A DNA stretch of 64,000 nt from the NCBI GenBank assembly GCA_943787795.1, contig CALSNU010000001.1, forward strand, positions 1,152,001-1,216,000, written 5' to 3'. Shown one piece after another: positions 5,074 to 27,260 of this stretch; positions within the stretch are counted from its first letter, which is position 1, and the number at the start of each line of letters is the position of its first letter. The position numbers and the translations under genes were made by a program. Source of the DNA: an uncultured bacterium (GTDB lineage Bacteria; Planctomycetota; UBA1135; GCA-002686595). The notes below the pieces were generated by a model. The model saw only the letters and a list, made by a program, of their open reading frames with translations. It was not told where the DNA came from and ran no database searches.

Positions 5074-6240
5074 ATGATCCAGAACGCCGGCGGCCCCTTC
5101 TCACACGAGCCCGACTCGTTGCTCGCGCCCGTGGGCGACGTGGACGGGCACGGCCCCAGTCTGGACTCGCTCCCTGACCTGGACACGGTGCTCGTGCTGG
5201 GCGGCGGCGCGATGCGCGGAATGGCGCACATCGGCGTGCTCCGCGCCCTCGACGACCTCGGGATCAGCGTGGACGCGATCGTCGGCACGAGCATCGGCTC
5301 ATTGATCGGGGCGCTCTACGCCAGCTCCATGAGCCCCGCCGAGATGGGGGAGGTGCTCCCCGGGCTCGCCAAGGACGACTACTTCCGACTGAACTTCGCC
5401 AAGTTCCTCAGCCGCGGCATTCGCGCGCCGAGCATGTACAGCGGCGAGACCTTCCGGAAGAGCCTCGAGCGGCTGATCCCCTCGCGGAACTTCGACGAGC
5501 TGAACCTGCCCTTCTTCTGTAACTCGGTCTGTCTGGAGACCGGCGGCCCGGTCTTCTTCGGGACGCGCGGCTTCCGTGATATCCCGCTCATTCAGGCGAT
5601 CTACGGCTCCTGTGCCCTACCTGGCGTCTTCGAGCCCCTGTCCTGGAAGGGCCGCCACTTCATGGATGGCGGCATCACGGACGCCCTCCCACTGCGTTTC
5701 GCGAAGCTCCTCAAGCCGCGCCGGATCATCGCTATTGACCTCACCGTCAAGCCGAGCCACAAGGTGCCGAACTACCGCTCTCATGCGGTCTCGACTCTCT
5801 TCCGGGCCTTCGACATCGTCGAGAACGTGATCATGGAGCACTCCCTCCATGCCCAGGTCTCGGACGAGGTCTGCCTCGTCCAGCCCAAGATCCGGGACAT
5901 GGATCGGTTTGACTTTGAGCGGGTCCATGAGCTGGTCGAGGCTGGCTACCGTGAGGCCGTGCGAGCGGTCTCATCCCACCCGACCACCCGCGGCCTGGTG
6001 CGGAGCGACCTCCCGGACGGCGTGGCCTGCCCGGTGACCCCGCACGAGTACGTCAGCCTCCGCCTTGACCCTGCCGCGTGCATCGGTTGTGGCATCTGCG
6101 AGATGACCTGCGCGACCGGCGGTTTCGAAGCCCGCGGCGACACGGCCGTGGTGAAGAAGCCGTTCAACTACGACTGTACCCGGGATCAGTCGTGCGTCCG
6201 GGCCTGCCCAACAGGCGCGATCCGGCTCGGGAACCTCTGA
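5074..6240 (+). CDS. Patatin-like phospholipase fused to a C-terminal 4Fe-4S dicluster ferredoxin
   Basis: GGGAMRG, GTSIG and DGG patatin motifs; C-terminal CIGCGICEMTC and CTRDQSCVRACP. Confidence 0.85.
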   Translation: MIQNAGGPFSHEPDSLLAPVGDVDGHGPSLDSLPDLDTVLVLGGGAMRGMAHIGVLRALDDLGISVDAIVGTSIGSLIGALYASSMSPAEMGEVLPGLAKDDYFRLNFAKFLSRGIRAPSMYSGETFRKSLERLIPSRNFDELNLPFFCNSVCLETGGPVFFGTRGFRDIPLIQAIYGSCALPGVFEPLSWKGRHFMDGGITDALPLRFAKLLKPRRIIAIDLTVKPSHKVPNYRSHAVSTLFRAFDIVENVIMEHSLHAQVSDEVCLVQPKIRDMDRFDFERVHELVEAGYREAVRAVSSHPTTRGLVRSDLPDGVACPVTPHEYVSLRLDPAACIGCGICEMTCATGGFEARGDTAVVKKPFNYDCTRDQSCVRACPTGAIRLGNL

Positions 6241-6548
6241 GTCGATGAGCGAGCGGGGGCCCCTCCGCCGCGCCCCGACGGGCTCTCCTCGCGGTGAGTG
6301 GTCGGCACCGAACGCGTGCCTCAGGAGCGGGTGGGGAGCCCTCTTCACGGAAGAAAGTTCCGGGTGAGCCGCACCGAATCAGGTGGTGGGGTGGAGGACT
6401 TCAACGGCGCCCGCCAACTTCTGCTCAAGGTCTGCCCCGGGAATGACTCGATAAGCGACGTAGAACGGCCCGCGCTCTGTCAGCGGCTGTTCACACCCAC
6501 CAAGTGTCTCGTTTCCCCGCTCGCGTCCGTCCAGTGGCGCTCAAGACC

Positions 6549-9500
6549 GTGAATCTCCTCAGCACGCCTGCCGCCGCCGTAGCGGCCCTGTTCAACAAGG
6601 TCCGTCTCGCGCTTCTCGCCATCGCCGTTGTTGCGGTGCCCGCCTGCTCTTCCTCGAGCGGCCCGGACGCCGTCACGACCGGCGAGATGGTCCAGAACCT
6701 CACCCTCGATCCGGCTGGCCAGACCATCGTCGCTACGCTGCAGGGGCTCGAAGGGACGATCCCTACGGCCTCAATCGAGGCCTCCGGCGGCCAGAGCGCG
6801 ACCAGCGTGACCCAGTCGGGCGCGACGTTCTCCATCACCTTTGACGAGATCGTCTCCCCGGATCACCAGGTCCGGTTCCTGGGACTCAGTGGCGTGACTG
6901 AGGAGTGGCGCCCCGTCACCTCGAGCGACTCACGGGAGACGGCCTTCTCGGTTGTCTCTGCCACGCAGGACACCTCGGACCTCGTGCTGGGGGGGGATAC
7001 GATCTCCGTTGAGTTCTACGCGGGGCCCAGGGTCATCGAGACCGAGGCCGAGGACATTGCCAACTGGACGCTCTCGGTTGAGGGGACGACTCTCGACCTG
7101 GTGGGGTCGAGCATCAGCTTCGATAACGCGACGCAGGTCGCGAGCCTTACCCTGGGCCGCTTCGCGAACCTCCACTCGTCCTTCACGATCAGCTGCAATG
7201 CCGCGACCGTCGCGGCGACGTCCGTCTGGAATGTCACCCTGACCGGGGCGGCCACAGGAGACGCGGCGGCTCCAACCGTCTCGACCGTGACCCAGGACCT
7301 CAACGCGGTCTCCCCTGGCGATGAGTTCGGCCGGGTCCTGGTCTTTGACTTCAACGAGCCCGTCAGCCCGATCTTCGGCGCGCAGCCCGCCAACTTCACC
7401 GTCGTGGATCACGCCCAAGCTCAGGGCGTGACCATGCCGACCAGCGTGGACTTCGAGGCCGGCGACGACTCGCAGCTGCGCGTTACCTTCAGTCGGCCGG
7501 TGGTGCCCGGCCTGGACCAGATCGACATTGACGGGCTGGTAGATGCTCACGGCAACCAGATCGTGGCCGTGACCAATTCGATCATCGCCGGCAGCGCTCC
7601 CGCCAACTCGTTTACTAGCGTGACGTTCGAGACGGTGGAGGGGGCGGGCAACGACCGCATGATCGCCAGCACGTCCCAGGCGCTGGACCCGGACACCGCG
7701 GCAGACGCGGCTCTCTGGGCGCTCACGGTCGGCGGTGGCGTCGGGGTCGTGGATCTCACGGCCCAGACGCTCAGCTACGACCTCCTGAGCCGTACCTTAA
7801 CGGTCGACCTGGTCTTCGACGTCCCGAACGGGACGACCGGCGACCTGGTCGCCTCAGGCGTCATTGAGGTGGACGGTGAGGCCTTCTCCGTCGCCGCAGC
7901 TCAGGCGCTCGCCGCCGGTGACTCGAGCTCACCCGGGGTCTCCTCGCTCACGCAGAACCGGATCACGGACAGTTCCGGCAAGACGGTGGACGTGACCTTC
8001 ACCGAGGACCTCGATCCCACGACCGCGCAAGACCCTGCCAACTACACCTTCGCTCCTGCTCTGACGGTGAACTCGGCCACCTTGATGGCCGGCAATCTCG
8101 TGCGGCTGCAAACGGACGACGTGGCCCTGCCGGGGGACTACACCCTCAGCCTGGCGCAGGTCGTGTCTGATCCGGCAGGTAACGACCTCGGCGCGCCCTT
8201 CGGACCCGCAGCGTTCCCCTCGACGGACGTCGCGGCGCCCTCCGCGATCGCCGCGTCGGGCACGGCGGTCGAAGGAGCTGAGAACGACCAGATCTCTGTC
8301 CTCTTCGACGATGTCATGGTTGCAGCCGAGGTGCAGAATCTGAGCAACTGGACCCTCGAGTCGCCGATCGGCACCCCGGTCAACCTGGCTGGCTCGTCGG
8401 TCACCTACACTGCGGTGAGCTCTGCCGAGCTCAGCATCGCCACGCTCGTGCTCGACGCGCCCGGCGCGGCTGCGCTGGTCCGATCCTACGACCTGCAGGT
8501 CGACTTCAGCGGCATGCGTGACCTCGGAGGCAACTCTGTCCTGGGGACCCCCGTCGCCGCGACCGTGGTCGGTGAGGCCAATCGGCCGGGGCTGGAGGCT
8601 GCCTTCATCAACGCCGGCGTTGGAGACGAGGTCACGCTCCGCTTCTCCGAGCCCATGCGCAGAATCACAGACCTCTTCGACGCCGTCTCGAACCCCGCTG
8701 GGGTCAAGTACACCGTGACGGACGCGGTCAGTGGGTCTCCGCTGACGCCGGTCTCTGTCACGGAGGTGGACGGCGGCCTCGGGGCGGTCCTGTCCTTCGG
8801 TACGGTGATCGATCCGGCGTCCACGGTCGACGTTGTCGGGCTGGTGGACCTCGCGGGGAACGTCCTCTTCCCGGTCCTCGCGTCGGCCCTCGAGGCCGAG
8901 GTCACCGACGTCCCGGCGATCAGCTCGGTGACCTTCCTGGCGGTCGAGGGCAGCGACAATGACCAGATCAGCGTGACCTTCAATCAGCCCATGTCGGCCT
9001 GGGGAATCACCTCCGCGGAGAGCTACAGCTGCGCGGATTCCAGGCCGGCTCCGGTCGCGCTGACGGACGCGGCCTTCAGCTTCGACGGCGTGGACACGGT
9101 CACGATCAGCCTCGCTGCCGCGAGCAACGTGGACCTGCAGAGCGCCCTGACCTATACGCTCACCCTGGAGACGTCGCCGACCCGGCCCCTGCGGACCAAG
9201 TATGGGGTGGCGCTGCCCATCTCCTCGTCCTCGCCGGCGACGGCCGTGACGGGGGACGTCACCGTGGGTCCGTCCCCGACAACCAGCCTGGCCATTGTTG
9301 ACCCGAGCTCCACGGAGAATGCCTTCGTGATCTTCAGCGAGAGTGTCAACGCCACGGAGGCCGTGTACGTCCTGAACTACACCTATGACGGGGGTACGGC
9401 CGCCACCTCAGCGGTGCTGGTCGATCCCCGGGTGGTCCAGGTGACCTTCACCGGGGCCACGGTCGCGCCAGCGGGCGTGGTTGATGTGCTTGCCAGCGTG

Positions 9501-10166
9501 GTTGACACCGCGGGCAACGCCTCCGCCGGCTTGCTGAGCCTGGCGGTGACGTCCGACTCGACCGCTCCGACGATCACCTCTGCGACCGCCGTGATCGCCC
9601 CTGGGTTTGGCGGGGACTACGTGGACGTGGCGTTCAATGAGGCGCTCGACCCCGCGACCGCCTCGGTGAGCGCGAACTATGCCCTGACCGTCGGCGGCGA
9701 GACGCTGCGCCTCCTGGGCGTGATCCACGACAGCGAAGCGAACTCGATTCGCCTGCTGGTCGAGGACATGCCGGAGGGCAGCACCGTCGTCACGACCGTG
9801 CAGAACGTCGCGGACTTCGCGGGTAACGCCCTGGCCCTGCCGGTCGCCACACCCGCGGTCGCGGGCGGGGACGTCACGATCCCTGCGCTCGGCGGTGGGG
9901 TGATCAACCTCTGGTGGGATGCCGCCGGGACGACGGTCGACCTGCGCTTCTCCGAGGACATCGACTACGCCTTCCCCGAGGTCCTGGCGAACTGGAGCAC
10001 CTCAGGGACCGCCACCGTCACGGCGGCCGAGGCGATCGGGCTCGACCACGTGCGGCTGACGCTCTCGGCGCCGCTCGCTGTGGGCGAGACGCTGGACCTC
10101 CAGGCGGGCCTCGCTGACTCCGCTGGCAACGTGGCGGGCAGCCTCTCGATCTCGCCTTCGAACTGA
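6549..10166 (+). CDS. Large acidic lipoprotein built from tandem Ig-like (SbsA/Big_5-like) repeats; probable surface or S-layer-like protein; start uncertain (6504 or 6549)
   Basis: Hydrophobic leader with VPA-C lipobox; roughly 110-aa repeats carrying V.V.F.E....A...NY/NW and D.AGN motifs; rich in Ala, Val, Thr, Ser and Asp. Confidence 0.75.
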   Translation: MNLLSTPAAAVAALFNKVRLALLAIAVVAVPACSSSSGPDAVTTGEMVQNLTLDPAGQTIVATLQGLEGTIPTASIEASGGQSATSVTQSGATFSITFDEIVSPDHQVRFLGLSGVTEEWRPVTSSDSRETAFSVVSATQDTSDLVLGGDTISVEFYAGPRVIETEAEDIANWTLSVEGTTLDLVGSSISFDNATQVASLTLGRFANLHSSFTISCNAATVAATSVWNVTLTGAATGDAAAPTVSTVTQDLNAVSPGDEFGRVLVFDFNEPVSPIFGAQPANFTVVDHAQAQGVTMPTSVDFEAGDDSQLRVTFSRPVVPGLDQIDIDGLVDAHGNQIVAVTNSIIAGSAPANSFTSVTFETVEGAGNDRMIASTSQALDPDTAADAALWALTVGGGVGVVDLTAQTLSYDLLSRTLTVDLVFDVPNGTTGDLVASGVIEVDGEAFSVAAAQALAAGDSSSPGVSSLTQNRITDSSGKTVDVTFTEDLDPTTAQDPANYTFAPALTVNSATLMAGNLVRLQTDDVALPGDYTLSLAQVVSDPAGNDLGAPFGPAAFPSTDVAAPSAIAASGTAVEGAENDQISVLFDDVMVAAEVQNLSNWTLESPIGTPVNLAGSSVTYTAVSSAELSIATLVLDAPGAAALVRSYDLQVDFSGMRDLGGNSVLGTPVAATVVGEANRPGLEAAFINAGVGDEVTLRFSEPMRRITDLFDAVSNPAGVKYTVTDAVSGSPLTPVSVTEVDGGLGAVLSFGTVIDPASTVDVVGLVDLAGNVLFPVLASALEAEVTDVPAISSVTFLAVEGSDNDQISVTFNQPMSAWGITSAESYSCADSRPAPVALTDAAFSFDGVDTVTISLAAASNVDLQSALTYTLTLETSPTRPLRTKYGVALPISSSSPATAVTGDVTVGPSPTTSLAIVDPSSTENAFVIFSESVNATEAVYVLNYTYDGGTAATSAVLVDPRVVQVTFTGATVAPAGVVDVLASVVDTAGNASAGLLSLAVTSDSTAPTITSATAVIAPGFGGDYVDVAFNEALDPATASVSANYALTVGGETLRLLGVIHDSEANSIRLLVEDMPEGSTVVTTVQNVADFAGNALALPVATPAVAGGDVTIPALGGGVINLWWDAAGTTVDLRFSEDIDYAFPEVLANWSTSGTATVTAAEAIGLDHVRLTLSAPLAVGETLDLQAGLADSAGNVAGSLSISPSN

Positions 10167-10193
10167 TCCCGCGCGTCTGAACTTGCGCCCCAT

Positions 10194-10233
10194 GGGAGGG
10201 GGGTCGGAATCATTTTCCGGCCCCCCTTCCTTC
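10194..10233 (+). terminator. Stem-loop after the Ig-repeat gene
   Basis: GGGAGGGGGGTCGGAA / TTCCGGCCCCCCTTCC forms a 16-bp stem with G-U pairs and a short T tail. Confidence 0.55.
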
Positions 10234-10348
10234 GTGCGTGGGGGCGGAGAAGCGGCCTTCGCCCGACATCCGTGATTCCCATACAGATCCCCGTGCAGGT
10301 CGCTCGATAACCCTAGTGCCCGCTTCAAGCGGACTCTTCCTGCCAATC

Positions 10349-10903
10349 ATGATTCGAGACGCCAACTTCGAGGATCTCCGACGCTCGGCCAATCGCCGCC
10401 GGTTGGTGCACATCGTGATCGGTTCGACGGTCCTGTCCACTCTGCTGACGGTCGGCGTGACTCGGGAAGTGAAGATCTACCGGGAGGTCGGCGCCGTTCA
10501 CCCCGCTGATGTCCGCGACCTCTCTGCCCTCGAGCAGCGGAATGTGGAGCTGGAGCGTATCGCGAGGACGCATCACTTCTGGACTGGCGCGATCGGGCTG
10601 CGGGGCGAGATCTCGGACCTGACTGTCGCGATCGCCGAGCTTCGACGCGCATCAGACGCGCGTGAGGCCGAGTCTCAACGGGAAGAGGAGCGCCTCCGTG
10701 AGGAGGCGGAGCTGGAGCGTATGCGCGGCCTTGCGGCCGTGGAGCGGGGCCGGTACTCGGAGGCCTTGAGCCACTTCAAGGCGGCGCGACAGATCTCCGA
10801 TTCGGTCGGCCCGACGGGGTTCGCCGGCGGTCCGTGGAGTCATCGAGAGCAGGTGATCCTCGATATCCAGGCCCTCGAGCAGTGGGAGGCGGAGCGCCGC
10901 TGA
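10349..10903 (+). CDS. Hypothetical single-TM coiled-coil protein with a C-terminal TPR-like helix pair; first gene of the mgl-like operon
   Basis: RRRLVHIVIGSTVLSTLLTVGV TM segment, E/R-rich coil, RGLAAVERGRYSEALSHFKAA TPR-like motif; ends 10 nt before the next gene. Confidence 0.65.
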   Translation: MIRDANFEDLRRSANRRRLVHIVIGSTVLSTLLTVGVTREVKIYREVGAVHPADVRDLSALEQRNVELERIARTHHFWTGAIGLRGEISDLTVAIAELRRASDAREAESQREEERLREEAELERMRGLAAVERGRYSEALSHFKAARQISDSVGPTGFAGGPWSHREQVILDIQALEQWEAERR

Positions 10904-10913
10904 GCGAGCAGTC

Positions 10914-11978
10914 ATGGCCCTCTTGAAGAACATCTGGACCCGTGTATCGGGTTACGCCCTGGATCGTGCATCGACTCCTGAGGCGGCCGCGCGTCGGGTC
11001 CGAAAGCTCGCCGGGGGCGGGGACTACAGCGGCGCCCTGGAGGTCTGCAAGGACGCTCTTGACCGCTTCCCCGAGGACCACAAGCTCCAGCGCTTGTCTC
11101 GCGATGTGCGGCTCGCTGAGCGGGACACTCGGCGAAGCTCGCTCATGGCCGAGCTCGAGGCGACCCCCTCGGTGGATGGTTACCGCGAGCTGTGCGACCT
11201 GCTGCTGAAGCGGGGCGAGGCCGCCGGTGCGCTCGAATTCGTCGGCCGCTGGCGGCAGGTCGATTCCTCCGGAGAGCCGCTCTACTACGAGGCGGCAGCC
11301 TTCGGCGAGCTCTTCTTCGGGAACCACCTGAGCCGAGACGGGCTGCGCGCGTTCCAGCTGGCCGCGGAGGCCGGGAAGATCCGGAGGGATGACCCGCGGC
11401 CCTTCCGCCTCCAATTCGAGATCGCGCGCCGCTGTGGTGCCTGGGAAGACGCCCGCATCGCGCTCGCCCGCCTCCTCGACCTGATGCCAGGCAACCGGCT
11501 CATCGAGGGGCGCTTTCGCGGCGTGATCGCCAACTGCGCGAACTCACGATCGCTCTCGAAGGCGATCGCGGACGTCGAGCGCACTGGCCGGTTCCTGGAT
11601 GACGACCTCGACACGGATGGAACCCTCGACCGCGACCTGATCCGCCCGGGCCTGCAAGAGCTCGCTGGGCGGGATGATGTTCACGTGGCGTTCTTCCTGC
11701 GCGGCAATACTGCGCTTGTTCAGGGAGCCCAGGGGACGGCGGCTGATCGATCGGCGCGGGCCGTCCGAGATGTCCTGTCCATGACGCGGAGTTCGTCGCG
11801 GAAGCTCTTGCTGGGCGTTCCGGTGGAGCTGCGCTGTGAGGGGTCCGGTGGGTCGCTGGTCTTGAAGGCGGGCGATGAAGGCACGGCCGCGGTCTGGGCC
11901 GCGCGCAGCCTGACCGAGACATCGAGCCGACTCATGTCCGAGCTTTCGAGCGGATCCGTTGTGGAGAAGGCCGCATGA
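10914..11978 (+). CDS. TPR-repeat protein with a C-terminal roadblock/LC7-like domain
   Basis: TPR-like units (GDYSGALEVCKDALDRFPED; GAWEDARIALARLLDLMPGN); the last ~110 aa show a roadblock-like pattern (LQELAGRDDVHVAFFL...KLLLGVPVELRCEGSGGSLVL). Confidence 0.65.
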   Translation: MALLKNIWTRVSGYALDRASTPEAAARRVRKLAGGGDYSGALEVCKDALDRFPEDHKLQRLSRDVRLAERDTRRSSLMAELEATPSVDGYRELCDLLLKRGEAAGALEFVGRWRQVDSSGEPLYYEAAAFGELFFGNHLSRDGLRAFQLAAEAGKIRRDDPRPFRLQFEIARRCGAWEDARIALARLLDLMPGNRLIEGRFRGVIANCANSRSLSKAIADVERTGRFLDDDLDTDGTLDRDLIRPGLQELAGRDDVHVAFFLRGNTALVQGAQGTAADRSARAVRDVLSMTRSSSRKLLLGVPVELRCEGSGGSLVLKAGDEGTAAVWAARSLTETSSRLMSELSSGSVVEKAA

Positions 11979-12607
11979 TGAAGGACGTCCTGGATTCGGT
12001 GACGAGCCAGCAAGGGGTTCGCCTGGCCGCGATCTTCAGCAACGAGGGCGTGCCCCTCTGCATTCTCGAGGCCGACAGCATCGCTGGCGGTTGGGTTGAC
12101 ATCACCACTGGCTCGACCGTCGCGGTCGACGCCGAGCGCCAGCAGGTGGACGCGGCGTCTATCGTGGCCTTCGCAGCGAGCTGGGTCGAGGACCTCGCCC
12201 GGACGAGTGGGGGGGCCGGCTGGGACTTCGAGAAGCGCTTCTCCATGATCGCCACAGAGGGGGCGCTTGTGGTGCAGCTTGGTCCCGGTGCCAATGTCCT
12301 CGCGGTGCTTGAGCCCGGTGCGGACCCCCAGAGCGTTCACTTCCCCATGGATGTCGCGGTTGAGCGCCTTCATCGGCTGCTCCGCGAAATGGGCCGATCC
12401 GAACAGGAGCAACCGCCCGCGCCGATCGCGGGCGTTCAAACGGAGAGCGAGGGGGCCGCCAGCGCGGCTGGATCCTCGAAGCCGAGCGGAACGGTTCCGC
12501 TCGGGCAACTGATGACCAACACCGTCAGTGAGCCGGGCGCGGCCGCTGACGTCCCGACGGCTGGCGCCGTCAACAACGCAACCAACAGATCCTCGGGAGA
12601 CCACTGA
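11975..12607 (+). CDS. Roadblock/LC7 domain protein with a disordered C-terminal tail
   Basis: MKDVLDSVTSQQGVRLAAIFSNEGVPL N-terminus and MIATEGALVVQLGPGANVLAVL strands are typical of the roadblock fold; ATGA overlap with the upstream gene. Confidence 0.7.
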   Translation: MMKDVLDSVTSQQGVRLAAIFSNEGVPLCILEADSIAGGWVDITTGSTVAVDAERQQVDAASIVAFAASWVEDLARTSGGAGWDFEKRFSMIATEGALVVQLGPGANVLAVLEPGADPQSVHFPMDVAVERLHRLLREMGRSEQEQPPAPIAGVQTESEGAASAAGSSKPSGTVPLGQLMTNTVSEPGAAADVPTAGAVNNATNRSSGDH

Positions 12608-12608
12608 G

Positions 12609-13934
12609 ATGGTTCAGATCAACTTTGCTCAGAAGAGCGTGACGGTGAAGATCGTCTACTACGGCCCCGGCATGTCCGGAAAGACCACCAACCTCGAGAT
12701 CGTCCATCAGCGGGCGCCCGAGTCCAACAAGGGGGATCTGACCAGCATCTCGACGGACGGCGATCGAACGCTGTTCTTCGACTTCATGCCCCTGGACCTG
12801 GGGACGGTGGCGGGGATGCGGACGCAGTTCCAGCTCTACACGGTTCCTGGCCAGGTCTACTACAACTCGACGCGCAAGCTAGTGTTGCAGGGCGTGGACG
12901 GTGTCATCTTCATCGCTGACTCCAGCGGCTCGATGATGGATGAGAACCTGGAGTCTCTCCGCAACCTGGAGGAGAACCTCCGGGAGTACGGGAAGGACAT
13001 CTCCACCATCCCGATGGTGATCCAATACAACAAGCGCGACCTGCCGGACGCGCTCTCTGTCGAGGAGTTGGAGGCCAAGATCAACCGCTACGGCGCCCCC
13101 TCGTTCGAGGGCATCGCGAGCTCAGGCCAAGGCGTCTTTCCGACGCTGAAGTCCCTCGCAGCGAGCGTGCTCGACACGATCCATGAGCAGACAGGCGCGG
13201 CGAGCGCTGGCCGTCCGGCGACCGCCCCCGCGGCAGTACAGCCCGCCGCAGTGCAGCCCGCCGCAGTGCAGCCCGCGGCCCCGCTTCCGGCGCCCGCGGC
13301 CGCCGCGCCTGCCCCGCAGCAGCCACCCGCCGTTCCCGCCTTGGCGGGGCAGGGGCAGCAGGGTGCTGCGGCGCTGGGGACGCCGCCCCAGCCAGCTGGC
13401 GCTGCACCGATGATGTCGATGCCGCCCACCGCCCCGGCTCCACAGGCTCCTGCAGCTCAGGCCCCCGCTGCCCAGGCCCCCGCTGCCCCGGCCCAGCCCG
13501 CCCAGGCTTCGGCGCCGACCGCCCCGGCGGAGGGGCTGCGCCTCGCGGAAAGTCGTCCTGCATCCGCCGCTCCGGCTCCCATGAGCCCGCCGGCCATGCC
13601 CGCCTCACCCCCCGCTTCGGCGATCCCGATGGCTCCGACCCCGCCCCCTGCGTCCTCGCCGCCTCAGGCGCCGGCCGCCAACAGGGGCGCGACGGCTCGG
13701 GCCTATGCGCCCACGGTCGCAGGTCAGCCAGGCCCCGGCGCCTCGGTGCCCGGGCCTCGCGCAGGCAGCACGGCGCCTTCCGGACGCCTTCGCCCGCGCG
13801 GCGCCTCCACTCGGGCCATGTCGGCGACGCCTCAGCAGTCGGCCAGGAAATCCACGTTCATCACCGCCGCCGTGGTCGTCGTCGCTGTTGCGGCGGGGAT
13901 CGCGATCGGCGGAGCCGTGTTCAACCTTATCTGA
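12609..13934 (+). CDS. mglA: MglA-family small Ras-like GTPase with a Pro/Ala/Gln-rich extension and C-terminal TM helix
   Basis: KIVYYGPGMSGKTTNL, DRTLFFDF, LYTVPGQVYY..TRKLVL.GVDG, QYNKRDLP; about 220 aa of low-complexity linker; ends RKSTFITAAVVVVAVAAGIAIGGAVFNLI. Confidence 0.95.
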   Translation: MVQINFAQKSVTVKIVYYGPGMSGKTTNLEIVHQRAPESNKGDLTSISTDGDRTLFFDFMPLDLGTVAGMRTQFQLYTVPGQVYYNSTRKLVLQGVDGVIFIADSSGSMMDENLESLRNLEENLREYGKDISTIPMVIQYNKRDLPDALSVEELEAKINRYGAPSFEGIASSGQGVFPTLKSLAASVLDTIHEQTGAASAGRPATAPAAVQPAAVQPAAVQPAAPLPAPAAAAPAPQQPPAVPALAGQGQQGAAALGTPPQPAGAAPMMSMPPTAPAPQAPAAQAPAAQAPAAPAQPAQASAPTAPAEGLRLAESRPASAAPAPMSPPAMPASPPASAIPMAPTPPPASSPPQAPAANRGATARAYAPTVAGQPGPGASVPGPRAGSTAPSGRLRPRGASTRAMSATPQQSARKSTFITAAVVVVAVAAGIAIGGAVFNLI

Positions 13935-13942
13935 GGGGCTCC

Positions 13943-14446
13943 ATGCGTATCTCGGATGAGAACCTCCGGCAGGGCCGGCTCGTGTTCTACGAGCAGGACG
14001 TCTGCCGACTCGACGGGGAGCTCGACGGCTTCCTCGAATTCTCCGGTGCCCGATGCGCGGTCCTGATTGACCGTGAGGGGCACCTGGTGACCCGCCGTGG
14101 CGATACCGCTTCTGCCAACCTCGACTCGCTATCGGCGCTCATGGCCGGCAGCTTCGCGGCGACCAAGGAGATCGCTCATCAGCTCGGCGAGGAGAGCTTC
14201 AGCACGCTGCTGCACCAGGGCGATCAGCAGAGCATTCAGGTTTCGATCGTGGGAGAGCGGACGCTCTTCTGCGTGGTCTGGGATGAGCGAAGCAACTTCG
14301 GCCTCGTTCGGTTCTACGCCCAGGAGACGACGAAGCGGCTCGAGCAGATCTTCAAGGAGATGTCAGATCGCACGGAAAACCCGAGCGTGAGCCTGTCGGA
14401 CGGATACTCCGACGAGGCGGCAGCTGCGCTCGACGATCTCTTCTGA
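13943..14446 (+). CDS. mglB: MglB-family roadblock/LC7 protein (putative GAP of MglA)
   Basis: LVFYEQD, VLIDREGHLV, SLSALMAGSFAATKEIA..LGEESF..LLHQG, NFGLVR and C-terminal LDDLF match the Myxococcus MglB pattern; GAGG RBS. Confidence 0.9.
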   Translation: MRISDENLRQGRLVFYEQDVCRLDGELDGFLEFSGARCAVLIDREGHLVTRRGDTASANLDSLSALMAGSFAATKEIAHQLGEESFSTLLHQGDQQSIQVSIVGERTLFCVVWDERSNFGLVRFYAQETTKRLEQIFKEMSDRTENPSVSLSDGYSDEAAAALDDLF

Positions 14447-14876
14447 CCCGCACTGCCCCGTCTGATCCGCGCTGGCTCTTCTGATTCGCACGGGCTCCTG
14501 ATCACTCGAGCGGGTCCCCGCTGCCGAGCTTCGGCTCCGAGTCGGCTTGGTGGATCCTGGAAAGCGCGGTCTCCTGGGCCGAAAAGTCGACCTCAATGAG
14601 GGCGCACTCGCGGGACGCGAGCGCGCCCTCTGTCGTTGAATCGCACGCGCGGCGTTGCGGTGACGTGCGCGCAAGCTCCTTTATTTTCAACGCTTGGGGC
14701 GGCGTTCTTGGAAATCCACCATTGCGGTCGGAAAACGCTCCGGATTTACGCGGAGATTTGAGACAGGTCACCCATAGACGCGTCGATGGACGCACCGATG
14801 TCGTGGTTTCCCCTCGCGCTCGCTTCGAGCGCGAACCATCCCCCCAGGGCCTCACGGTCCAAGGAGAACCACTCAA

Positions 14877-15254
14877 ATGGCAAAGAAGAAAGCCACCCGC
14901 AAGAAGGCGACCAAGAAGGCCGCCAAGAAGAAGGTCGCCAAGAAGAAGGTGACCAAGAAGAAGGCCGCCAAGAAGGCGACCAAGAAAAAGGCCACCAAGA
15001 AGAAGGCGACCAAGAAGGCCGCCAAGAAGAAGGTGACCAAGAAGAAGGCCACCAAGAAGAAGGCGACCAAGAAGGCCGCCAAGAAGAAGGTGACCAAGAA
15101 GAAGGCCGCCAAGAAGAAGGTCGCCAAGAAGAAGGCGACCAAGAAGAAGGCCACCAAGAAGAAGGCCACCAAGAAGGCCGCCAAGAAGAAGGTGACCAAG
15201 AAGAAGGCCACCAAGAAGAAGGCGGCCAAGAAGAAGGCCACGCGCCGCCGCTGA
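14877..15254 (+). CDS. Histone H1-like, lysine-rich repetitive DNA-binding protein
   Basis: 125 aa of KKKAT/KKAA/KKKVT repeats, over half Lys, no acidic residues; AAGGAG RBS upstream. Confidence 0.85.
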   Translation: MAKKKATRKKATKKAAKKKVAKKKVTKKKAAKKATKKKATKKKATKKAAKKKVTKKKATKKKATKKAAKKKVTKKKAAKKKVAKKKATKKKATKKKATKKAAKKKVTKKKATKKKAAKKKATRRR

Positions 15255-15577
15255 TCTTCCAGCCCCGGTCCTCACTCGACACGCAACGGCGTCCGGCTGC
15301 GCAACTGCGCTTCATCGCCGGGCTCCCGCGAGTTGCCTCGCCCCTCAGGGTCTTCGCTCCACCGCACAGGAGAGCGAGCGTCTGGGGTCGGACAGCAGCG
15401 CGCGCTGACGAGAGTGGGCAGGTGGTTCACCCCGCCCGCGCTGCGCGCTGATGGACCCCAGGGACATCACGCCCCGTAGCGAGAAGAGGGGATCGGAGCA
15501 AAGACTCAGCGAATGCGCCCCCGCCGGCCGCGGGATCATCTGGTGTGGATGGTCTCACGAATCGGTACCGAACGACG

Positions 15578-15616
15578 AGGCGGCCCCATCCCTGCAGGGG
15601 GTGGGGCCGCCTTTCT
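15578..15616. terminator. Stem-loop between the convergent histone-like gene and metG
   Basis: AGGCGGCCCCATCCCT / GGGGGTGGGGCCGCCT, followed by TTCTC. Confidence 0.6.
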
Positions 15617-15697
15617 CATGGACGGAGTCGACCTCGGCGGCTGATCTGATGCCAGGTCGGGGCGGGCCGCGGACTGTCCCCGGCTCAAGCCCTAGAG

Positions 15698-17374
15698 TCA
15701 GGCCTCTGATTCAGGAAGTTGGACCCTCGGGAAGAGGGCCTCGGGCGTCCCGAGGGCTGCCCCGGCGTCGAGGCCCCGCCAGGTTCCGGCCTGCGGTAGG
15801 CCCGGCCAGGGCTGGCTGGCGACCTCGTCGGTCTTGCCGAGCATCTCCCATAGCTGCTGCGCCTTGGTCGGCATGAAGGGCGCCATCCATCGAGCCTGCC
15901 AGCTCAGCCACTCGCAGAGGGTGTTGAGGGCGGAGGCCGCCTTCTCCGGGTCTTCCTTGCGGAGCGCCCACGGGGCTATCCTGTCCACGAAGATATTGGC
16001 GACCGTGGCGTTGGCCACGACGGCTTCGGCAGCGCGGCGGAAGCGGAATTCTCGTACGTGGGCGGCGGGGTCTTCGATCGGCCCGCACTCCTCCAGGATC
16101 AGTCGATCCATCTCCTCGCGGTGCGGGTCATGCAGCGTCGGGATCACGGCATCGAAGTTCTTGGCGATGAACTTCAGGACCCGCGTCGCTAGGTTGCCGA
16201 TCGTGCCGGCGAGGGATGTGTTGGCGGTCTGGACGAACTGCTCCAGGGAGAACTCCGAGTCCGCCGTCTCCGGCATGGTCGAGCACAGGTAGAACCGCGT
16301 CGTGTCCACGTCCCACTCCTTGGCGAACTCCACGACGTCGAAGGCGTTGCCGCCCGAGGTCGAGAACTTGCCGCCCTTGAGGTTGTAGAACTCATTGGCC
16401 GGTACCGCGGAGGGGAGGACGTAGCCGTCCTTCACCCCGTGGAGCATTGAGGGGAAGACCAGGCAGTGGAAGGGGATGTTGTCCTTCCCGATGAAGTGCA
16501 CCAGCTGGGTGTCCTCGCCCTGCCACCAGTCCTTCCACGCCTCAGGGGTTCCTCGCTCCCGCATGAGCTCCTTGGTAAAGCTGACATACCCGATGGGCGC
16601 GTCGAACCAGACGTAGAGCACCTTGCCCTCTCCAGCATCGCCGACCTCGGGGGGCAGGCTGACGCCCCAGCTCATGTCCCGCGTGATCGCGCGCTCGGGG
16701 ACATCCTCGAGGAGGTTCTCAATGAACTTCTCCACGTTGGCCTTCCACTCGTGGTCGCGGATCCAGGCCCCAATCTTCTCGTCTCGAAGTTTGGGGAGGT
16801 CCAGATACCAGTGGGTGGTGGTCCGCTGTTCCGGGGTGGAGCCGCAGATCTTGCAGCGCGGGTCCTTGAACTCGAGCGGGTCGATCCAGGTACCGCAGCT
16901 CGGGCACTCGTCGCCGCGTGCGCCGTCGGCACCGCACTTGTAGCAGGTCCCCTCCACGTACCGGTCCGCAAGGAACATGTCGTCATGAACGCAGAAGAGC
17001 TGCTTGGTCTGCCGCTCCGCCAGGTAGCCGTTCTCCAGCAGTCGAGAGAAGAACTCGCGGGACGAGTCGGCGTGCTCGGGGCACGTGCTCGTCCCGGAGA
17101 CCACGTCGTAGCGGATGTCCAGCGCGTCGAACGTGGCGCGCATGTTGCCGTTCCAGCGCGCCACGTAGGAGGCGTAGTCCTCGCCCGCCTTCTCCGCCGA
17201 GATCGTGATGGCGACCCCGTGATCGTCCGATCCTGAGACGGCGAGCACGTCCTCTCCGCACATTCTGAGGGTGCGGACATAGACGTCCGCGGGCAGGTAA
17301 GCGCCGGCGATATGACCGAAGTGAAGCGGCCCGTTGGCGTACAGGAGGGCCGAAGTGACGATGGTGCGGGCCAC
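15698..17374 (-). CDS. metG: Methionyl-tRNA synthetase, short form without the C-terminal tRNA-binding domain
   Basis: YANGPLHFGH, Zn knuckles (CYKC, CPSC, CKIC), YVWFDAPIGY, FIGKDNIPFH, KFSTS. Confidence 0.97.
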   Translation of the reverse strand: MARTIVTSALLYANGPLHFGHIAGAYLPADVYVRTLRMCGEDVLAVSGSDDHGVAITISAEKAGEDYASYVARWNGNMRATFDALDIRYDVVSGTSTCPEHADSSREFFSRLLENGYLAERQTKQLFCVHDDMFLADRYVEGTCYKCGADGARGDECPSCGTWIDPLEFKDPRCKICGSTPEQRTTTHWYLDLPKLRDEKIGAWIRDHEWKANVEKFIENLLEDVPERAITRDMSWGVSLPPEVGDAGEGKVLYVWFDAPIGYVSFTKELMRERGTPEAWKDWWQGEDTQLVHFIGKDNIPFHCLVFPSMLHGVKDGYVLPSAVPANEFYNLKGGKFSTSGGNAFDVVEFAKEWDVDTTRFYLCSTMPETADSEFSLEQFVQTANTSLAGTIGNLATRVLKFIAKNFDAVIPTLHDPHREEMDRLILEECGPIEDPAAHVREFRFRRAAEAVVANATVANIFVDRIAPWALRKEDPEKAASALNTLCEWLSWQARWMAPFMPTKAQQLWEMLGKTDEVASQPWPGLPQAGTWRGLDAGAALGTPEALFPRVQLPESEA

Positions 17375-21628: not shown

Positions 21629-24016
21629 CTACTCAGCGGCGAGGCCGCTCTCAAGGCGAACGTCGATTGCCTTGCTCCCCGTCTCGAAGGAGCCGATCAG
21701 GAGCTCGCCGTGGACGGGTGAGAAGCGCCACCCGTCATCGGACCTCCCCGACCCCGGCGAGACATCATCTCGCTCCGCGTGGACGCCCGCCGGGTCGATG
21801 GGCTCGAGACGACCGGTGATGAGGCGCCGACCCTGGGCATCGGCATCCAGGGTGGCCATGTCGAACCAGAGGTGGGCCCTGCTGCCGCGCCGGACGGTCT
21901 CGAACTCCTCCTGGAGCGACAGCGGCCCCTGATCGGGGGCCAGGAGGAAGCCCTCCGTCCAGGTCGTCCCCTGGGGCCAGCTGCGCACATCCCCCCGGCC
22001 CCAGTCGGGCCTGCGGTAGGAGGTATAGCCCCGTCGCCCGCTGGCGTCCGACACGCGCAGCCCAAGGGCATAGGCGCCCCGCACGACCTCGCCGCGCTGG
22101 TTGATGTCCACCTCGACCCAGTAGAGGCCGTCGCCGGGGAGTCGGGAGACCCTCAGGTCGTCCAGGCTCATCACCTCGCGCTCCGGCCCGAGGGGGCGCT
22201 CGAGGCGCACGGACCCGAGCGTGGACGTCGGCGAGGGCGAGGGACCCTCTCGAACCACGCGGCGGCGCACGCCCTTGGGGACCTGGCGGGTGAACACCAC
22301 CACCGCGCCCGTCCCGGTGTCAGCGGTGCGATCCCAGAAGGCCGCGGCCACGTGGTACTCCCGGGCGAGCACCTCGACGACCTCCGAAGCCCACGGGGCG
22401 TGCAGGAGGGAGGAGTGAATCAGGAGGGCGTCCTGGGCCCGCATCCGGGCGAGGCTGCTCGCCATGGCCTCGGGGTCCAGTCGTACCTTGGCGGCGTCGA
22501 GCTGGAACGGGAGCTTCTCCAGCTCCCAGCTGGCCGGCGTCCGAAAGAGCACCGCCCAGTGGTAGCTGGACGCGACCTTCGGGGCGCGCCCATCTGCCGA
22601 GATGGGCGCCTGCTCCAGCCACCGCGCCGCGCGCTCGAAGGCCCCAAAGGGTGCGGTGGGGGTCAGGGAGGCGAGGAGGGCGGCTTGCAGCACACCGCCG
22701 AGCAACAGGATCGCGACCACCGCGGCCCGCAGGCGCGGCGCGGCGGCGGAGGCGCTGCCCGCGAGGACGACGAGCCCGATGCCCATGTATGCCGCGTAGG
22801 CCGGCAGCACGGGGAGCCAGATGCGCATGTCCTTGCTGCCCTTGAAGCTCGTGAGCGCTCCGTACGCCAGCGCGATACCCAGGGGCATGAGGCCAACCAG
22901 GGCGGCGCGACTCCCGCCCCGGACGGACCTCAACGCGACTGCGGCGGCGCCCAGACCCACCGCGGGCGCCAGCCAGCGCGCGGAGAACCACTGGAAGTGG
23001 TCGAGGTACCAGGTCCGGCCGGCCAGGGCCCTGAAGTCGTCCGTGGATCGGGAGACGTCGTCCAGGGTGACCTCACCGATGGCGTTCGCGCCCTGCTGGT
23101 AGAGCCACTGGCCGAGGTCCACGGCGCCGATCTCGTACAGCAGCTGGCCGGACTGGGGGCCAAAGTTGATCAGGAGGTAGGTCCAGAGTCCCACGCCGAA
23201 CTGCCCGTAGGTCACCCGGTCCAGGACGCACTGGGCCAGCACGAGGGTGGCCAAGGAGGTCATCGCACCGCTGGCCGTCCGCGCGGCAGCCCTGGGCCCA
23301 CTGGAGAGCGTGCGCCCGACCACCATCGCGACCAGCACCATGAGCACCAGCGGGATGGCCTTGTAGGCGCACATCACGGCGACCCCCAGCCAGGCGCCCG
23401 CGGCCCTTCCCCGGCCGCCAGCCCGCCGGCCTCCGCCGGCTTCCTGGGCGGCCCCGGCGGGATCGAACAGCGCTCGCTCCATCCCCAGGGCCAGGGCGGC
23501 GCCCGCGGCCACGTCGGTCATGGGGATGGCCATGAACTGCACGAGCGTGGGGGACGCCAGGGCGGCGGCTGCCGCCAGGTTCCCCGCGGCAGGCAGCCTC
23601 TCGTTCCGCACCCCGATGGCCCCGGCGATCGCGATGGTCAGCTGCCGCGTGGCGAAGAGCAGGGAGGCGCTGATGAGGAGGTGCACGAATCCCGCGTAGA
23701 GCAGCACCCAGGGCCCCTCGGCGACGCCCGCGAGCCCGGCCAGCCAGAGCGCCGGCGCGTGCAGTGCCGTGATGCCGGCTGCGCGGACCTTCTGGGCGTC
23801 GAGAAGCTCCTCACCTGCGACCAGGGCGCGGGCTCGCTCGAGGTACTCGACGACATCGGCGAAGAGGGCGCCCTCGACGCGGATCCAGGACCAGGTGCCT
23901 AGCAGGGCGGCCACGCCGACGAGCGCGAGGAAGCCGGGATCCCGCCACGCTCCGGCGGCGCCTGACGGTGCCTGCGGCCGCGCGCCGGCGGGGGACCCTT
24001 GGTGTGGGGCGCTCAT
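21629..24016 (-). CDS. Multi-TM membrane protein, probable GT-C (ArnT/PMT-like) glycosyltransferase with a soluble C-terminal domain
   Basis: First TM followed by ADVVEYLERARAL, many hydrophobic segments, MTDV, KDMRIWLPVLP; C-terminal W.RGDVRSWP.G. Confidence 0.6.
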   Translation of the reverse strand: MSAPHQGSPAGARPQAPSGAAGAWRDPGFLALVGVAALLGTWSWIRVEGALFADVVEYLERARALVAGEELLDAQKVRAAGITALHAPALWLAGLAGVAEGPWVLLYAGFVHLLISASLLFATRQLTIAIAGAIGVRNERLPAAGNLAAAAALASPTLVQFMAIPMTDVAAGAALALGMERALFDPAGAAQEAGGGRRAGGRGRAAGAWLGVAVMCAYKAIPLVLMVLVAMVVGRTLSSGPRAAARTASGAMTSLATLVLAQCVLDRVTYGQFGVGLWTYLLINFGPQSGQLLYEIGAVDLGQWLYQQGANAIGEVTLDDVSRSTDDFRALAGRTWYLDHFQWFSARWLAPAVGLGAAAVALRSVRGGSRAALVGLMPLGIALAYGALTSFKGSKDMRIWLPVLPAYAAYMGIGLVVLAGSASAAAPRLRAAVVAILLLGGVLQAALLASLTPTAPFGAFERAARWLEQAPISADGRAPKVASSYHWAVLFRTPASWELEKLPFQLDAAKVRLDPEAMASSLARMRAQDALLIHSSLLHAPWASEVVEVLAREYHVAAAFWDRTADTGTGAVVVFTRQVPKGVRRRVVREGPSPSPTSTLGSVRLERPLGPEREVMSLDDLRVSRLPGDGLYWVEVDINQRGEVVRGAYALGLRVSDASGRRGYTSYRRPDWGRGDVRSWPQGTTWTEGFLLAPDQGPLSLQEEFETVRRGSRAHLWFDMATLDADAQGRRLITGRLEPIDPAGVHAERDDVSPGSGRSDDGWRFSPVHGELLIGSFETGSKAIDVRLESGLAAE

Positions 24017-24307
24017 GGGAGCGTGAAGATACCCACTGGGAGATCGATCTCTTCGCGGAAAGGCAGCAGCCGGTACTTGAAACGGGCGCGCCCGATCTCG
24101 ATTGTGGGGACGCCCCGGTGCTCCGGAGCGTCGCCCGCACATCGACGCCCCGGATGTTCGCCGGGTCCCCCGTGACCGCGGGGAGCTCCGCACACCGTCC
24201 ACCACACCACACCGTCGGCCCTCGCGCGCCGCCGGCCACGCGCCCTGCTCCAGGGGCGGAGTCTTCTCCGCCCGATCGGCACCGCGCCACCAGAGGGAAG
24301 TTCATCC

Positions 24308-26772: not shown

Positions 26773-26820
26773 GGCCCTATTGTGCCCGATCCATCGGTTC
26801 GATCCGCGGGCTCGATCCGC

Positions 26821-26924
26821 GGAGCCGACCGGCGGAGCCGACCGGGGGAGCGGACCCGAGGAGCAGATTCGGGGAGCAGATTCGGGGAGCAGATTCGGGG
26901 AGCCGACTTGCGGGGCCGACCCGC
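26821..26924. repeat. 13-bp tandem repeat, 8 copies (GGAGCAGATTCGG consensus)
   Basis: Three identical central units flanked by diverged units such as GGAGCCGACCGGC. Confidence 0.85.
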
Positions 26925-27260
26925 GACGCCGTCGCCTCCGCCCGGGGGAGGCGCAGGGAGCTGGGCTGCGTCCGTCCCCTCTCCGGCACAGCGAGCCGGC
27001 GGGCGGGCCCTTGGACGGTGGGCGACGGCTCGACAGCTGACCGCCATCAGGTCACCGCCGCGCGAGGGCCGTCCTGGTCAGGCGCGGGCCTTGCCGGCGA
27101 AGTTCCGGTGAAGTTCCGGTGAGGTGCCGTGGCCTGAGCCCGCCGGAGGTTCATGCGAAGGTCCACGCGAAGGGTCGTGCAAAGGACCGCGAGCGGGCCG
27201 TGGCCATGGGAAGTCCGGGACATGGCCCGCGTACCCCCGTGATTCCGGTTCAATGTCGCC

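Follow-up and report, generated by a model that had tools for sequence, protein, structure and literature searches.

A probable tail-anchored form of the small GTPase MglA in Planctomycetota

Within a 64,000-nucleotide stretch of genomic DNA from an uncultured planctomycete (the window), we examined a gene for the small GTPase MglA, here called mglA-TA (12609..13934, + strand, including the stop codon at 13932-13934). Open-reading-frame (ORF) analysis, homology and coverage by independent DNA runs define it as a 441-residue protein in which a Ras-like G domain is followed by a 221-residue linker, predicted to be disordered, and a predicted C-terminal transmembrane (TM) helix. An initial annotation, made from the letters of the DNA, had proposed that such a protein would be permanently tethered to the membrane. 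Our analysis points the same way: together with the product of the adjacent mglB, the protein probably forms an MglA/MglB switch that stays at the inner membrane, held there as a single-pass protein by a C-terminal anchor, with its G domain in the cytoplasm.

Results

The G domain is of the group-1 MglA type

The G domain comprises residues 1-195 (12609..13193, + strand), with the P-loop at residues 19-26, the Arg finger at R53, Q82, and NKRD at 141-144. In a comparison with all PDB chains (phmmer), it matched Thermus MglA 3t12 at 2.6e-67 and Myxococcus MglA 5ymx at 5.8e-66, both over residues 2-193, and the MglA chains 6h17 and 6hjh at 1.1e-65 each, the next family, SAR1b, reaching 1.2e-05. 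The motifs from which an intact G domain had initially been recognized, namely GPGMSGKT, the Arg of DRTLFFDF, TVPGQ and NKRD, were all located, and they align identically and in register with the solved MglA structures. The residues of the P-loop and NKRD, together with R53, T54 and Q82, are invariant in 44 homologues. Roles for the intrinsic Arg finger and the catalytic Gln (R53 and Q82, M. xanthus numbering) are given in passages of PMC4316618. Of the features that mark group-1 MglA, we found a Ras-like G domain, an intrinsic Arg with a catalytic Gln, and an adjacent Roadblock/LC7 mglB; a further one, a soluble single-domain protein of ~195-200 residues, is absent, as the product has 441 residues, the 221-residue linker and the terminal TM. 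Judged by these alignments, it is a genuine group-1-type MglA, predicted to be catalytically complete.

Against Pfam, the protein was recognized by the generic Arf model alone (5.6e-07), and several JGI gene calls label long MglA homologues 'signal recognition particle receptor subunit beta', a label that mirrors Arf-like similarity only. No second MglA match came up in the genome to which the window belongs (4.71 Mb, 84.9% complete), and each of 7 same-family genomes likewise gave one match.

The coding frame is a single open one on the + strand, with possible starts at GTG 12528 or ATG 12609. The latter is the likely start, because it lies 1 nt after the upstream stop, is preceded by GGGAG, and opens the segment M1-V-Q-I-N-F-A, which does not vary among 44 aligned homologues. 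Independent DNA runs X3 and X4, both from studies other than the likely source, span 30 of 30 and 29 of 30 bins of 11900-14600, respectively; each shows a few substitutions, and neither has an insertion, a deletion or a joint. The reads thus pass through the linker with neither a stop nor a frameshift, a point on which the initial annotation had made its reading depend.

A low-complexity linker leads into a terminal hydrophobic helix

The linker (residues 196-416; 13194..13856, + strand) is a low-complexity segment of 221 residues, rich in Ala (32%), Pro (24%) and Gln (8%), with 12 K+R against 2 D+E. AAVQP occurs three times, APAAQ twice and QAPAA three times in tandem, and these peptide repeats are encoded by 15-nt DNA tandem repeats of 3.3 and 4.3 copies. 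The linker ends in a basic juxtamembrane patch (GRLRPRGASTRAMSATPQQSARKST); its last 36 residues (381-416) carry 7 K+R and 0 D+E.

Directly behind the patch, the last 25 residues (417-441; 13857..13931, + strand) read FITAAVVVVAVAAGIAIGGAVFNLI, contain a G-x-x-x-G(G) motif, and continue to the stop codon with no residues after. By hydropathy, AlphaFold2 (AF2) modelling and conservation, they are predicted to form a TM helix. Their Kyte-Doolittle mean over 19 residues (KD19) is 2.55, the maximum of the protein, compared with at most 1.14 elsewhere (residues 1-400). No N-terminal signal-like segment was found, the highest KD19 within residues 1-60 being 0.50. The AF2 model, built on a 44-row alignment, has residues 197-411 without secondary structure (pLDDT ~45-55), followed by a helix at 412-440 (pLDDT 64-87). 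The linker repeats, the basic patch, the hydrophobic helix running into the stop codon and the lack of a signal peptide had all been read from the sequence in the initial annotation, and each of them holds. The protein has the sequence attributes of a tail-anchored protein, a single TM at the extreme C-terminus and no N-terminal signal, accompanied by a positive-inside charge pattern in homologues. We place the G domain in the cytoplasm because of its GTP requirement.

The anchor and the character of the linker are conserved

A protein search limited to 242-772 residues yielded 5,911 proteins at E<=1e-5 among 8,000 candidates scored. In the 120 best long homologues, a terminal TM (KD19>=1.6 within 12 residues of the C-terminus) was present in 111, and the other 9 look truncated or frameshifted. 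With database proteins and ORFs from genomic loci pooled, 183 of 195 unique long homologues (>250 residues) end in a TM. The closest proteins shorter than 242 residues are mostly contig-end fragments, many of them labelled 'partial' by NCBI. Long homologues thus keep the terminal TM, as expected from the tail-anchored architecture initially proposed.

Relatives whose G domains are 95-97% identical align with the query over just 44-46% of its length; their linkers are not alignable, and their last ~45 residues are nearly identical. Across the 183 homologues with a terminal TM, linkers are 94-342 residues long (median 213) and contain 24% Ala, 23% Pro and 10% Gln. Net charge drops from +3.0 over the 15 residues ahead of the TM to +0.15 behind it. 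Half-way in the ranking by length, the hydrophobic segment counts 25 residues (median), and it ends the chain in 136 of the proteins; a [KR]P[KR] motif lies ~15-26 residues ahead of it in 128, and the segment itself bears a G-xxx-small pattern in 172. On this comparative evidence, composition, length range, basic juxtamembrane patch and helix are constrained and the sequence of the linker is unconstrained, as one would expect of a spacer joined to an anchor.

MglA with a predicted membrane anchor is widespread in Planctomycetota

Nearly all named relatives are metagenome-assembled genomes of Planctomycetota. The only cultured relative is Saltatorellus ferox Poly30, whose 471-residue protein, annotated simply as MglA, has a G domain 87% identical to that of the window. 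We found an MglA match (E<=1e-20) in 175 of 301 genomes sampled across the phylum. The 30 best loci (L001-L030) contain 28 complete ORFs, the remaining two loci running off their contigs, and all 28 end in a TM at most 9 residues from the C-terminus. A second set of 30 loci, with four genomes in common with the first, provided 24 complete, unmasked ORFs; 23 of these have a TM, which lies at most 14 residues from the end in 13. As predicted from these ORFs, a single-pass membrane anchor is the rule for MglA in the phylum.

At five loci of other Planctomycetota families (L110, L125, L123, L133 and L137) and in P0259, the MglA TM is followed by a short conserved segment (..GGYTGKL...LQKFYDDKLAP.LGG..) and then by a low-complexity tail. 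This segment is presumably periplasmic, and MglA would there be bitopic and not tail-anchored in the strict sense.

Long MglAs beyond the phylum carry other C-terminal motifs

When 1.84 billion representatives were scanned in full with the G domain alone (HMMER), 6,757 of them proved related at E<=0.001, and 2,261 at E<=1e-30. The best 150 relatives are 55-87% identical and, three shorter fragments aside, nearly all long (244-936 residues) with an N-terminal G domain. This preponderance does not give a ratio of long to short genes, because linkers diverge fast and long proteins are thereby split into too many clusters at 50% identity. A terminal TM is present in 48 of the 150 and an internal one in 13 more. 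Among 86 long relatives without a TM, 35 have, within the last 20 residues, a motif in which two other residues separate two hydrophobic pairs (FFKRLF, FLDNLF, FLSKFF). Shuffled tails contained a mean of 1.3 such motifs and a maximum of 5 (500 shuffles), and a control window 40-60 residues from the end contained 0. Tails with the motif average 7.3 K+R in their last 25 residues, and FFTSV(N/D)TDR..K(K/R)P(V/I)NPK often stands ahead of it. In P0289, P0295, P0305, P0316, P0321, P0328, P0353, P0358 and others, a basic motif of this kind (..KKKGFFKRLFG.., ..FLDNLFNK) occurs instead of a TM. The paired-hydrophobic spacing is that of one face of a predicted amphipathic helix. A hydrophobic-moment test of the basic tags was dropped, as it did not discriminate: the best 11-residue window averaged 0.52 compared with 0.51 for shuffled tails, and 44% of shuffles were as high or higher.

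One of 10 clusters of the class without a TM has an organism name, Candidatus Zixiibacteriota, and Atlas neighbours of the class, which serve as leads only, point to Fibrobacterota, Zixibacteria, Acidobacteriota and Myxococcota. Among the 301 Planctomycetota genomes sampled, P0305 as the query brought up no member of the amphipathic-tag class; the best matches there were TM forms at most 64% identical. Two further kinds of C-terminus were seen: an acidic ending, ..DDSPF(I/L)DL(Q/K)PF.G(V)D, in P0338, P0341, P0344, P0347 and P0320, and a beta-strand-like segment (..IRVPIRLTIGDQNISLELRVNLVVD..) in P0352, P0364, P0366, P0377, P0379 and P0383.

On a FastTree G-domain tree (140 rows), tag types cluster, with 35 changes against a shuffled mean of 76, none of 200 shuffles giving so low a value. 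A starred set of 23 rows, of which 22 are tail-anchored, includes the protein of the window. With 55 of 137 inner branches unsupported, we draw no conclusion from this tree on single versus multiple origins of the tags. These comparisons suggest that the C-terminal extension is an address tag for which a TM helix is one of several solutions, and they suggest a general plan in which a disordered spacer joins the G domain to a membrane address tag at the C-terminus.

mglA-TA lies in a conserved gene cluster

In close relatives, the genes on one strand run in the order Ig1220 - P221 - TPR354 - U210 - MglA - MglB, and the junctions within the cluster are tight or overlapping, as in an operon. The mglB gene (13943..14446, + strand) starts 8 nt downstream of mglA-TA and encodes a Roadblock/LC7 protein of 167 residues (Pfam Robl_LC7, 1.8e-11). 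It scores 5.9e-29 and 101 bits with the NCBIfam MglB model, below the cut-off of 200.

Immediately upstream of mglA-TA is the gene for U210 (11975..12607, + strand), whose start overlaps the TPR354 stop and whose stop lies 1 nt before the mglA-TA start. Its 210-residue product consists of a ~130-residue divergent Roadblock-like domain and a variable tail. The window's own U210 had no Pfam or NCBIfam match above cut-off (PF03259, 0.012). Across its family, 26 of 28 homologues match PF03259 at E<=1 (best 5.9e-08); the family profile aligns with that of MglB (hhalign, probability 84%, E 7.7e-06) and with PDB Roadblock chains at 3e-4 to 2e-3. As identified via its homologues, U210 is a divergent Roadblock protein.

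TPR354 (10914..11978, + strand; 354 residues) is predicted to be a TPR solenoid at residues ~22-224 (PDB profile TPR, 3.9e-11) with a C-terminal domain at 240-345. Its AF2 model has a pLDDT of 86 and gives the C-terminal domain an alpha-beta-beta-alpha-beta-beta-beta-alpha topology. In a Foldseek search, this domain matched the Asgard Roadblock3 homodimer chain 9jue_F (E 1e-3, TMt 0.65) at rank 26, behind TPR matches. Comparison of the TPR354 profile with those of MglB and U210 was not significant (probability 0.1% and 0.7%, respectively). In the model, the C-terminal domain resembles a Roadblock fold, a likeness that the sequence profiles do not support.

P221 (10238..10903, + strand, with the start uncertain between GTG 10238 and ATG 10349) is a small bitopic membrane protein. 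In 20 or more homologues, it has a conserved N-terminus of MIRD(L/A).., basic residues and a TM (MIRDLRY below), followed by a ~150-residue helical part; a weak TPR_2 match falls below cut-off. At the head of the cluster, Ig1220 (6504..10166, + strand) is translated as 1220 residues that probably begin with a lipoprotein signal (..VAVPAC) and contain Ig-like repeats (Pfam Big_5, 1.9e-13).

In 78 related loci, counting those with enough flank, same-strand synteny held for MglB in 54 of 55, U210 in 68 of 73, TPR354 in 71 of 71, P221 in 55 of 67 and Ig1220 in 41 of 57. In a more distant sample of the phylum, MglB lies downstream in 27 of 29 loci, the other two running off their contigs, and U210 was detected by tblastn in only 6 of 29, so the accessory gene set may differ between clades.

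The region 6200-15700 gave 0 sites in a sigma-70 promoter scan and 15 terminator-like matches, mostly artefacts of a Lys-rich repeat gene on the opposite strand. A 125-residue ORF 430 nt downstream of mglB (14877-15254, + strand) consists almost wholly of AKKK/ATKKK repeats, with a third-position G+C content (GC3) of 0.97 and a strong AT skew. It had no Pfam or NCBIfam match, was found by tblastn at the same position in 1 of 107 loci (L108) in a search limited by low complexity, and has the look of a basic protein of the histone-H1 or Hc1 kind. The gene at 5074-6240 (+ strand), directly ahead of the cluster, encodes an unusual combination, in which a patatin-like phospholipase domain (1.4e-37) is fused to a ferredoxin-type 4Fe-4S segment at the C-terminus (Fer4, 1e-6 to 1e-5). 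The protein encoded at 1278-3560 (+ strand) contains PSCyt1, PSD3, PSD4, PSCyt3 and PSD2 domains and a CBM60-like module; this PSD/PSCyt architecture is planctomycete-specific and independently places the window in Planctomycetota. Two more ORFs, at 21632-24205 (- strand; 858 residues, GC3 0.88) and 25396-27108 (+ strand; 571 residues, GC3 0.74), had no Pfam family at E<=1e-4.

A modelled contact between MglA and TPR354

We modelled a complex of MglA residues 1-196 with U210 (1-140) and TPR354 (238-354) together. The complex scored 0.65, and the best of three controls 0.42; of 157 solved complexes, 116 attain the score mark applied, as do 2 of 215 pairs that are mismatched. Three runs of the complex share at least 84% of contacts, with a partner pLDDT of at least 78. 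By beta-strand addition, the model pairs the invariant MglA strand VQINF (12609-12629, residues 1-7) with the TPR354 strand G-x-T-A-L-V-Q (residues 264-270), in which G264, T266, L268, V269 and Q270 do not vary among 28 homologues. The residues equivalent to 1-7 align inside the G domain in solved MglA chains, which bears on the freedom of this strand to bind. The model supports MglA-TPR354 binding without showing it.

Discussion

Alternative readings and points against membrane anchoring

The linker DNA is repetitive and its G+C content climbs to 0.75-0.81. Such DNA is error-prone, and the long ORF could be an assembly or frameshift artefact in which an ordinary short mglA has been fused to low-complexity DNA downstream. 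We reject this explanation as having practically no chance of being right, since neither of the two DNA runs from other studies has an indel over the gene and the tail is in frame and conserved, in 183 of 195 homologues from many assemblies and in 28 of 28 complete genomic ORFs. A genuine tail might still end in a helix that does not span the membrane and is instead a protein-protein or oligomerization element, or a sorting or cleavage signal. Ala/Gly/Val-rich helices with G-xxx-G can also pack within soluble assemblies. We nevertheless find this very unlikely, given the KD19 of 2.55 over an uncharged stretch of 25 residues, the positive-inside charge pattern among homologues, and the other membrane-type tag that takes the place of the helix in relatives. 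Its sorting-signal variant is rejected, because known C-terminal sorting signals require an N-terminal signal peptide, which the protein does not have, and because no NCBIfam model of such a signal matched.

Other proposals concern what the extension does. The linker might be a multivalent docking site for proline-binding modules, such as bacterial GYF-type domains, and so act as an effector platform. Its Pro content, 24% here and 23% over the homologues, is compatible with such a role, and passages of PMC11135422 describe a bacterial GYF domain that binds a proline-rich sequence and an over-representation of GYF proteins in Planctomycetes-Verrucomicrobia. The same passages report that ZnR-GYF proteins outside Myxococcales are uncorrelated with MglA-MglB operons. 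Linkers are moreover unalignable even where G domains are 96% identical, vary in length from 94 to 342 residues, and have no conserved motif that we could see besides the juxtamembrane [KR]P[KR] (128 of 183), all of which makes a docking role improbable. More plausible, and still tentative, is that the protein serves one envelope-spanning complex of P221 and Ig1220, as its dedicated on/off subunit on the cytoplasmic side, rather than acting as a general polarity switch, with the TM helix docking laterally to the complex through the G-xxx-G face. This would refine membrane anchoring and does not compete with it. The gene order retained in close relatives (Ig1220 in 41 of 57 loci, P221 in 55 of 67, TPR354 in 71 of 71, U210 in 68 of 73 and MglB in 54 of 55), the G-xxx-small motif in 172 of 183 TM tails and the conserved cytoplasmic MIRDLRY-basic-TM head of P221 argue for it. 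On the other side, MglA-TM and MglB persist across the phylum, where tblastn finds U210 in just 6 of 29 sampled loci, with flanks too short for Ig1220 and P221.

Several observations weigh against an anchored switch, or against parts of the case for it. Our TM calls rest on a hydropathy window and an AF2 helix, and the full-protein AF2 model is poor (mean pLDDT 52, and <50 for residues 1-96); given this poor N-terminal half of the G domain, the model was used for the linker and the helix only. The 12 of 195 long homologues that have no TM include many that appear truncated or frameshifted, and one complete planctomycete ORF, L132, has no TM and ends in a TPR-like segment. In the second set of loci, from other families, 10 of 24 ORFs have 30-95 residues after the TM, so strict tail anchoring is, from these ORFs, clade-specific and typical of the window's clade. 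Metatranscriptome contigs from two libraries span parts of mglA-TA, including linker DNA at 13099-13276 and the TM-to-mglB junction at 13566-13991; libraries of this type may contain DNA, and the contigs carry no transcript level. In the modelled complex, confident contacts are limited to residues 1-7 and 10 of MglA and 240-285 of TPR354. A score of 0.42 was still obtained in the control with a substitute for U210, so that TPR354 rather than U210 provides the signal, and the pass may in part reflect likeness to solved GTPase-Roadblock complexes. Cell polarity, surface adhesion or motility, which we favour as the output of the switch, is guessed from homology and neighbourhood.

How an anchored MglA could work

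We propose that an inner-membrane MglA/MglB switch would operate as follows. The G domain would hang in the cytoplasm on a disordered Ala/Pro/Gln leash of ~220 residues, with an estimated contour length of up to ~80 nm at ~0.36 nm per residue, and the leash would end in the basic, positive-inside juxtamembrane patch and the 25-residue TM helix in the inner membrane. The GTP/GDP cycle would most likely be driven by the co-encoded MglB as GTPase-activating protein (GAP), the role given to MglB towards MglA of Myxococcus and Thermus in passages of the published work. Scaffolding or nucleotide exchange may fall to U210 and the Roadblock-like domain of TPR354, which are candidates for these roles. 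As the switch would be unable to leave the membrane, its nucleotide state would govern membrane-local recruitment, controlling which partners are recruited or activated within reach of the leash rather than a choice between pole and cytosol.

Planctomycetota are known for budding, invaginated membranes, shape-shifting and prey engulfment. Because a membrane protein and a surface Ig-like lipoprotein are co-encoded with mglA-TA, an envelope-spanning adhesion or motility device is a reasonable proposal in this clade. Amoeba-like surface locomotion and shape-shifting are described for Saltatorellus ferox in passages of a preprint on Saltatorellota (10.1101/817700), in which MglA and GTPase are each mentioned zero times, and a link between tethered MglA and this locomotion is speculation. 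The presence of the same gene in cultured S. ferox Poly30 makes the idea testable.

A larger picture, which we offer with considerable reserve, has two parts. One is a multi-phylum, undescribed class of MglA with interchangeable tags, the TM in Planctomycetota and a MinD-like basic amphipathic peptide in relatives that point to Zixibacteria, Fibrobacterota and Acidobacteriota. The other is a six-gene cluster of the Saltatorellus clade, to which the window belongs, comprising a surface Ig-like lipoprotein, a membrane adaptor and three Roadblock or Roadblock-like modules, that would steer surface adhesion or amoeba-like locomotion.

Comparison with known systems

The closest known systems are the group-1 MglA/MglB pairs of Myxococcus xanthus and Thermus thermophilus (5ymx, 6h17, 3t12), with which the window shares an end-to-end G domain, including the P-loop, R53, Q82 and NKRD, and a Roadblock-type mglB directly downstream. 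Solved group-1 MglA chains have 195-203 residues and no membrane segment, whereas the window's protein adds a 221-residue linker and a TM. Current MglA models involve a freely diffusing protein with its GTP form at one pole and its GDP form cytosolic. MglA of Myxococcus relocates from cytosol to pole, whereas that of the window would stay at the membrane. The anchored variant is homologous to MglA and would work like it, with a different cellular logic. If the switch cannot leave the membrane, control of polarity or motility would have to proceed by two-dimensional diffusion, local activation or partner recruitment, and this would apply to the usual form of MglA across Planctomycetota. The variation among homologues also lets nature's own versions be compared for the effect of leash length and type of anchor on the tuning of a small GTPase.

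We found no description of a membrane-anchored MglA in the literature searched, which was mostly open-access and had supplements (e.g. the tables of PMC4316618) outside its scope. In passages of the MglA classification itself (Wuichet and Sogaard-Andersen 2014; PMC4316618), 'planctomycetes' does not occur and the only 'transmembrane' refers to CvnA kinases. The Myxococcus system with MglC and extra Roadblock partners, as presented in passages of PMC4719450 and PMC9481161, likewise has more than one Roadblock-fold protein alongside MglA, the counterparts here being MglB, U210 and, as a candidate, the Roadblock-like domain of TPR354. No orthology to MglC was detectable for U210 or TPR354. We know of no described counterpart for the putative TPR-Roadblock fusion or for its modelled contact with the N-terminal strand of MglA.

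Among bacterial membrane tethers, disordered linkers occur in the P/Q domain of ZipA and the C-terminal linker of FtsZ, and MinD has a C-terminal amphipathic membrane-targeting sequence. In these systems, as predicted for the window's protein, a nucleotide-binding domain is held at the membrane via a variable disordered spacer, while the proteins and their functions differ. Judged by eye, the tags of the distant long MglAs (..KKKGFFKRLFG..) look like an amphipathic peptide of the MinD type.

In eukaryotes, Ras, Rho and Rab combine a hypervariable C-terminal region with a lipid anchor, Miro has a C-terminal TM, and SR-beta has an N-terminal one. The C-terminally anchored members have the design seen here, in which an unstructured spacer that varies links a small G domain to an anchor at the C-terminus. 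In contrast to Ras-type GTPases, the predicted anchor of the window's protein is a helix rather than a prenyl group, and its spacer is ~10 times the length of the Ras hypervariable region. The anchors are not homologous, and the likeness is best described as an analogy of design, as distinct from homology of the anchor. Understood in this way, the window's protein would offer a bacterial counterpart to the membrane-anchoring logic of the Ras superfamily, and a multi-phylum class of tagged MglAs, if true, would form a bacterial parallel to the hypervariable region and lipid anchor of Ras and Rab.

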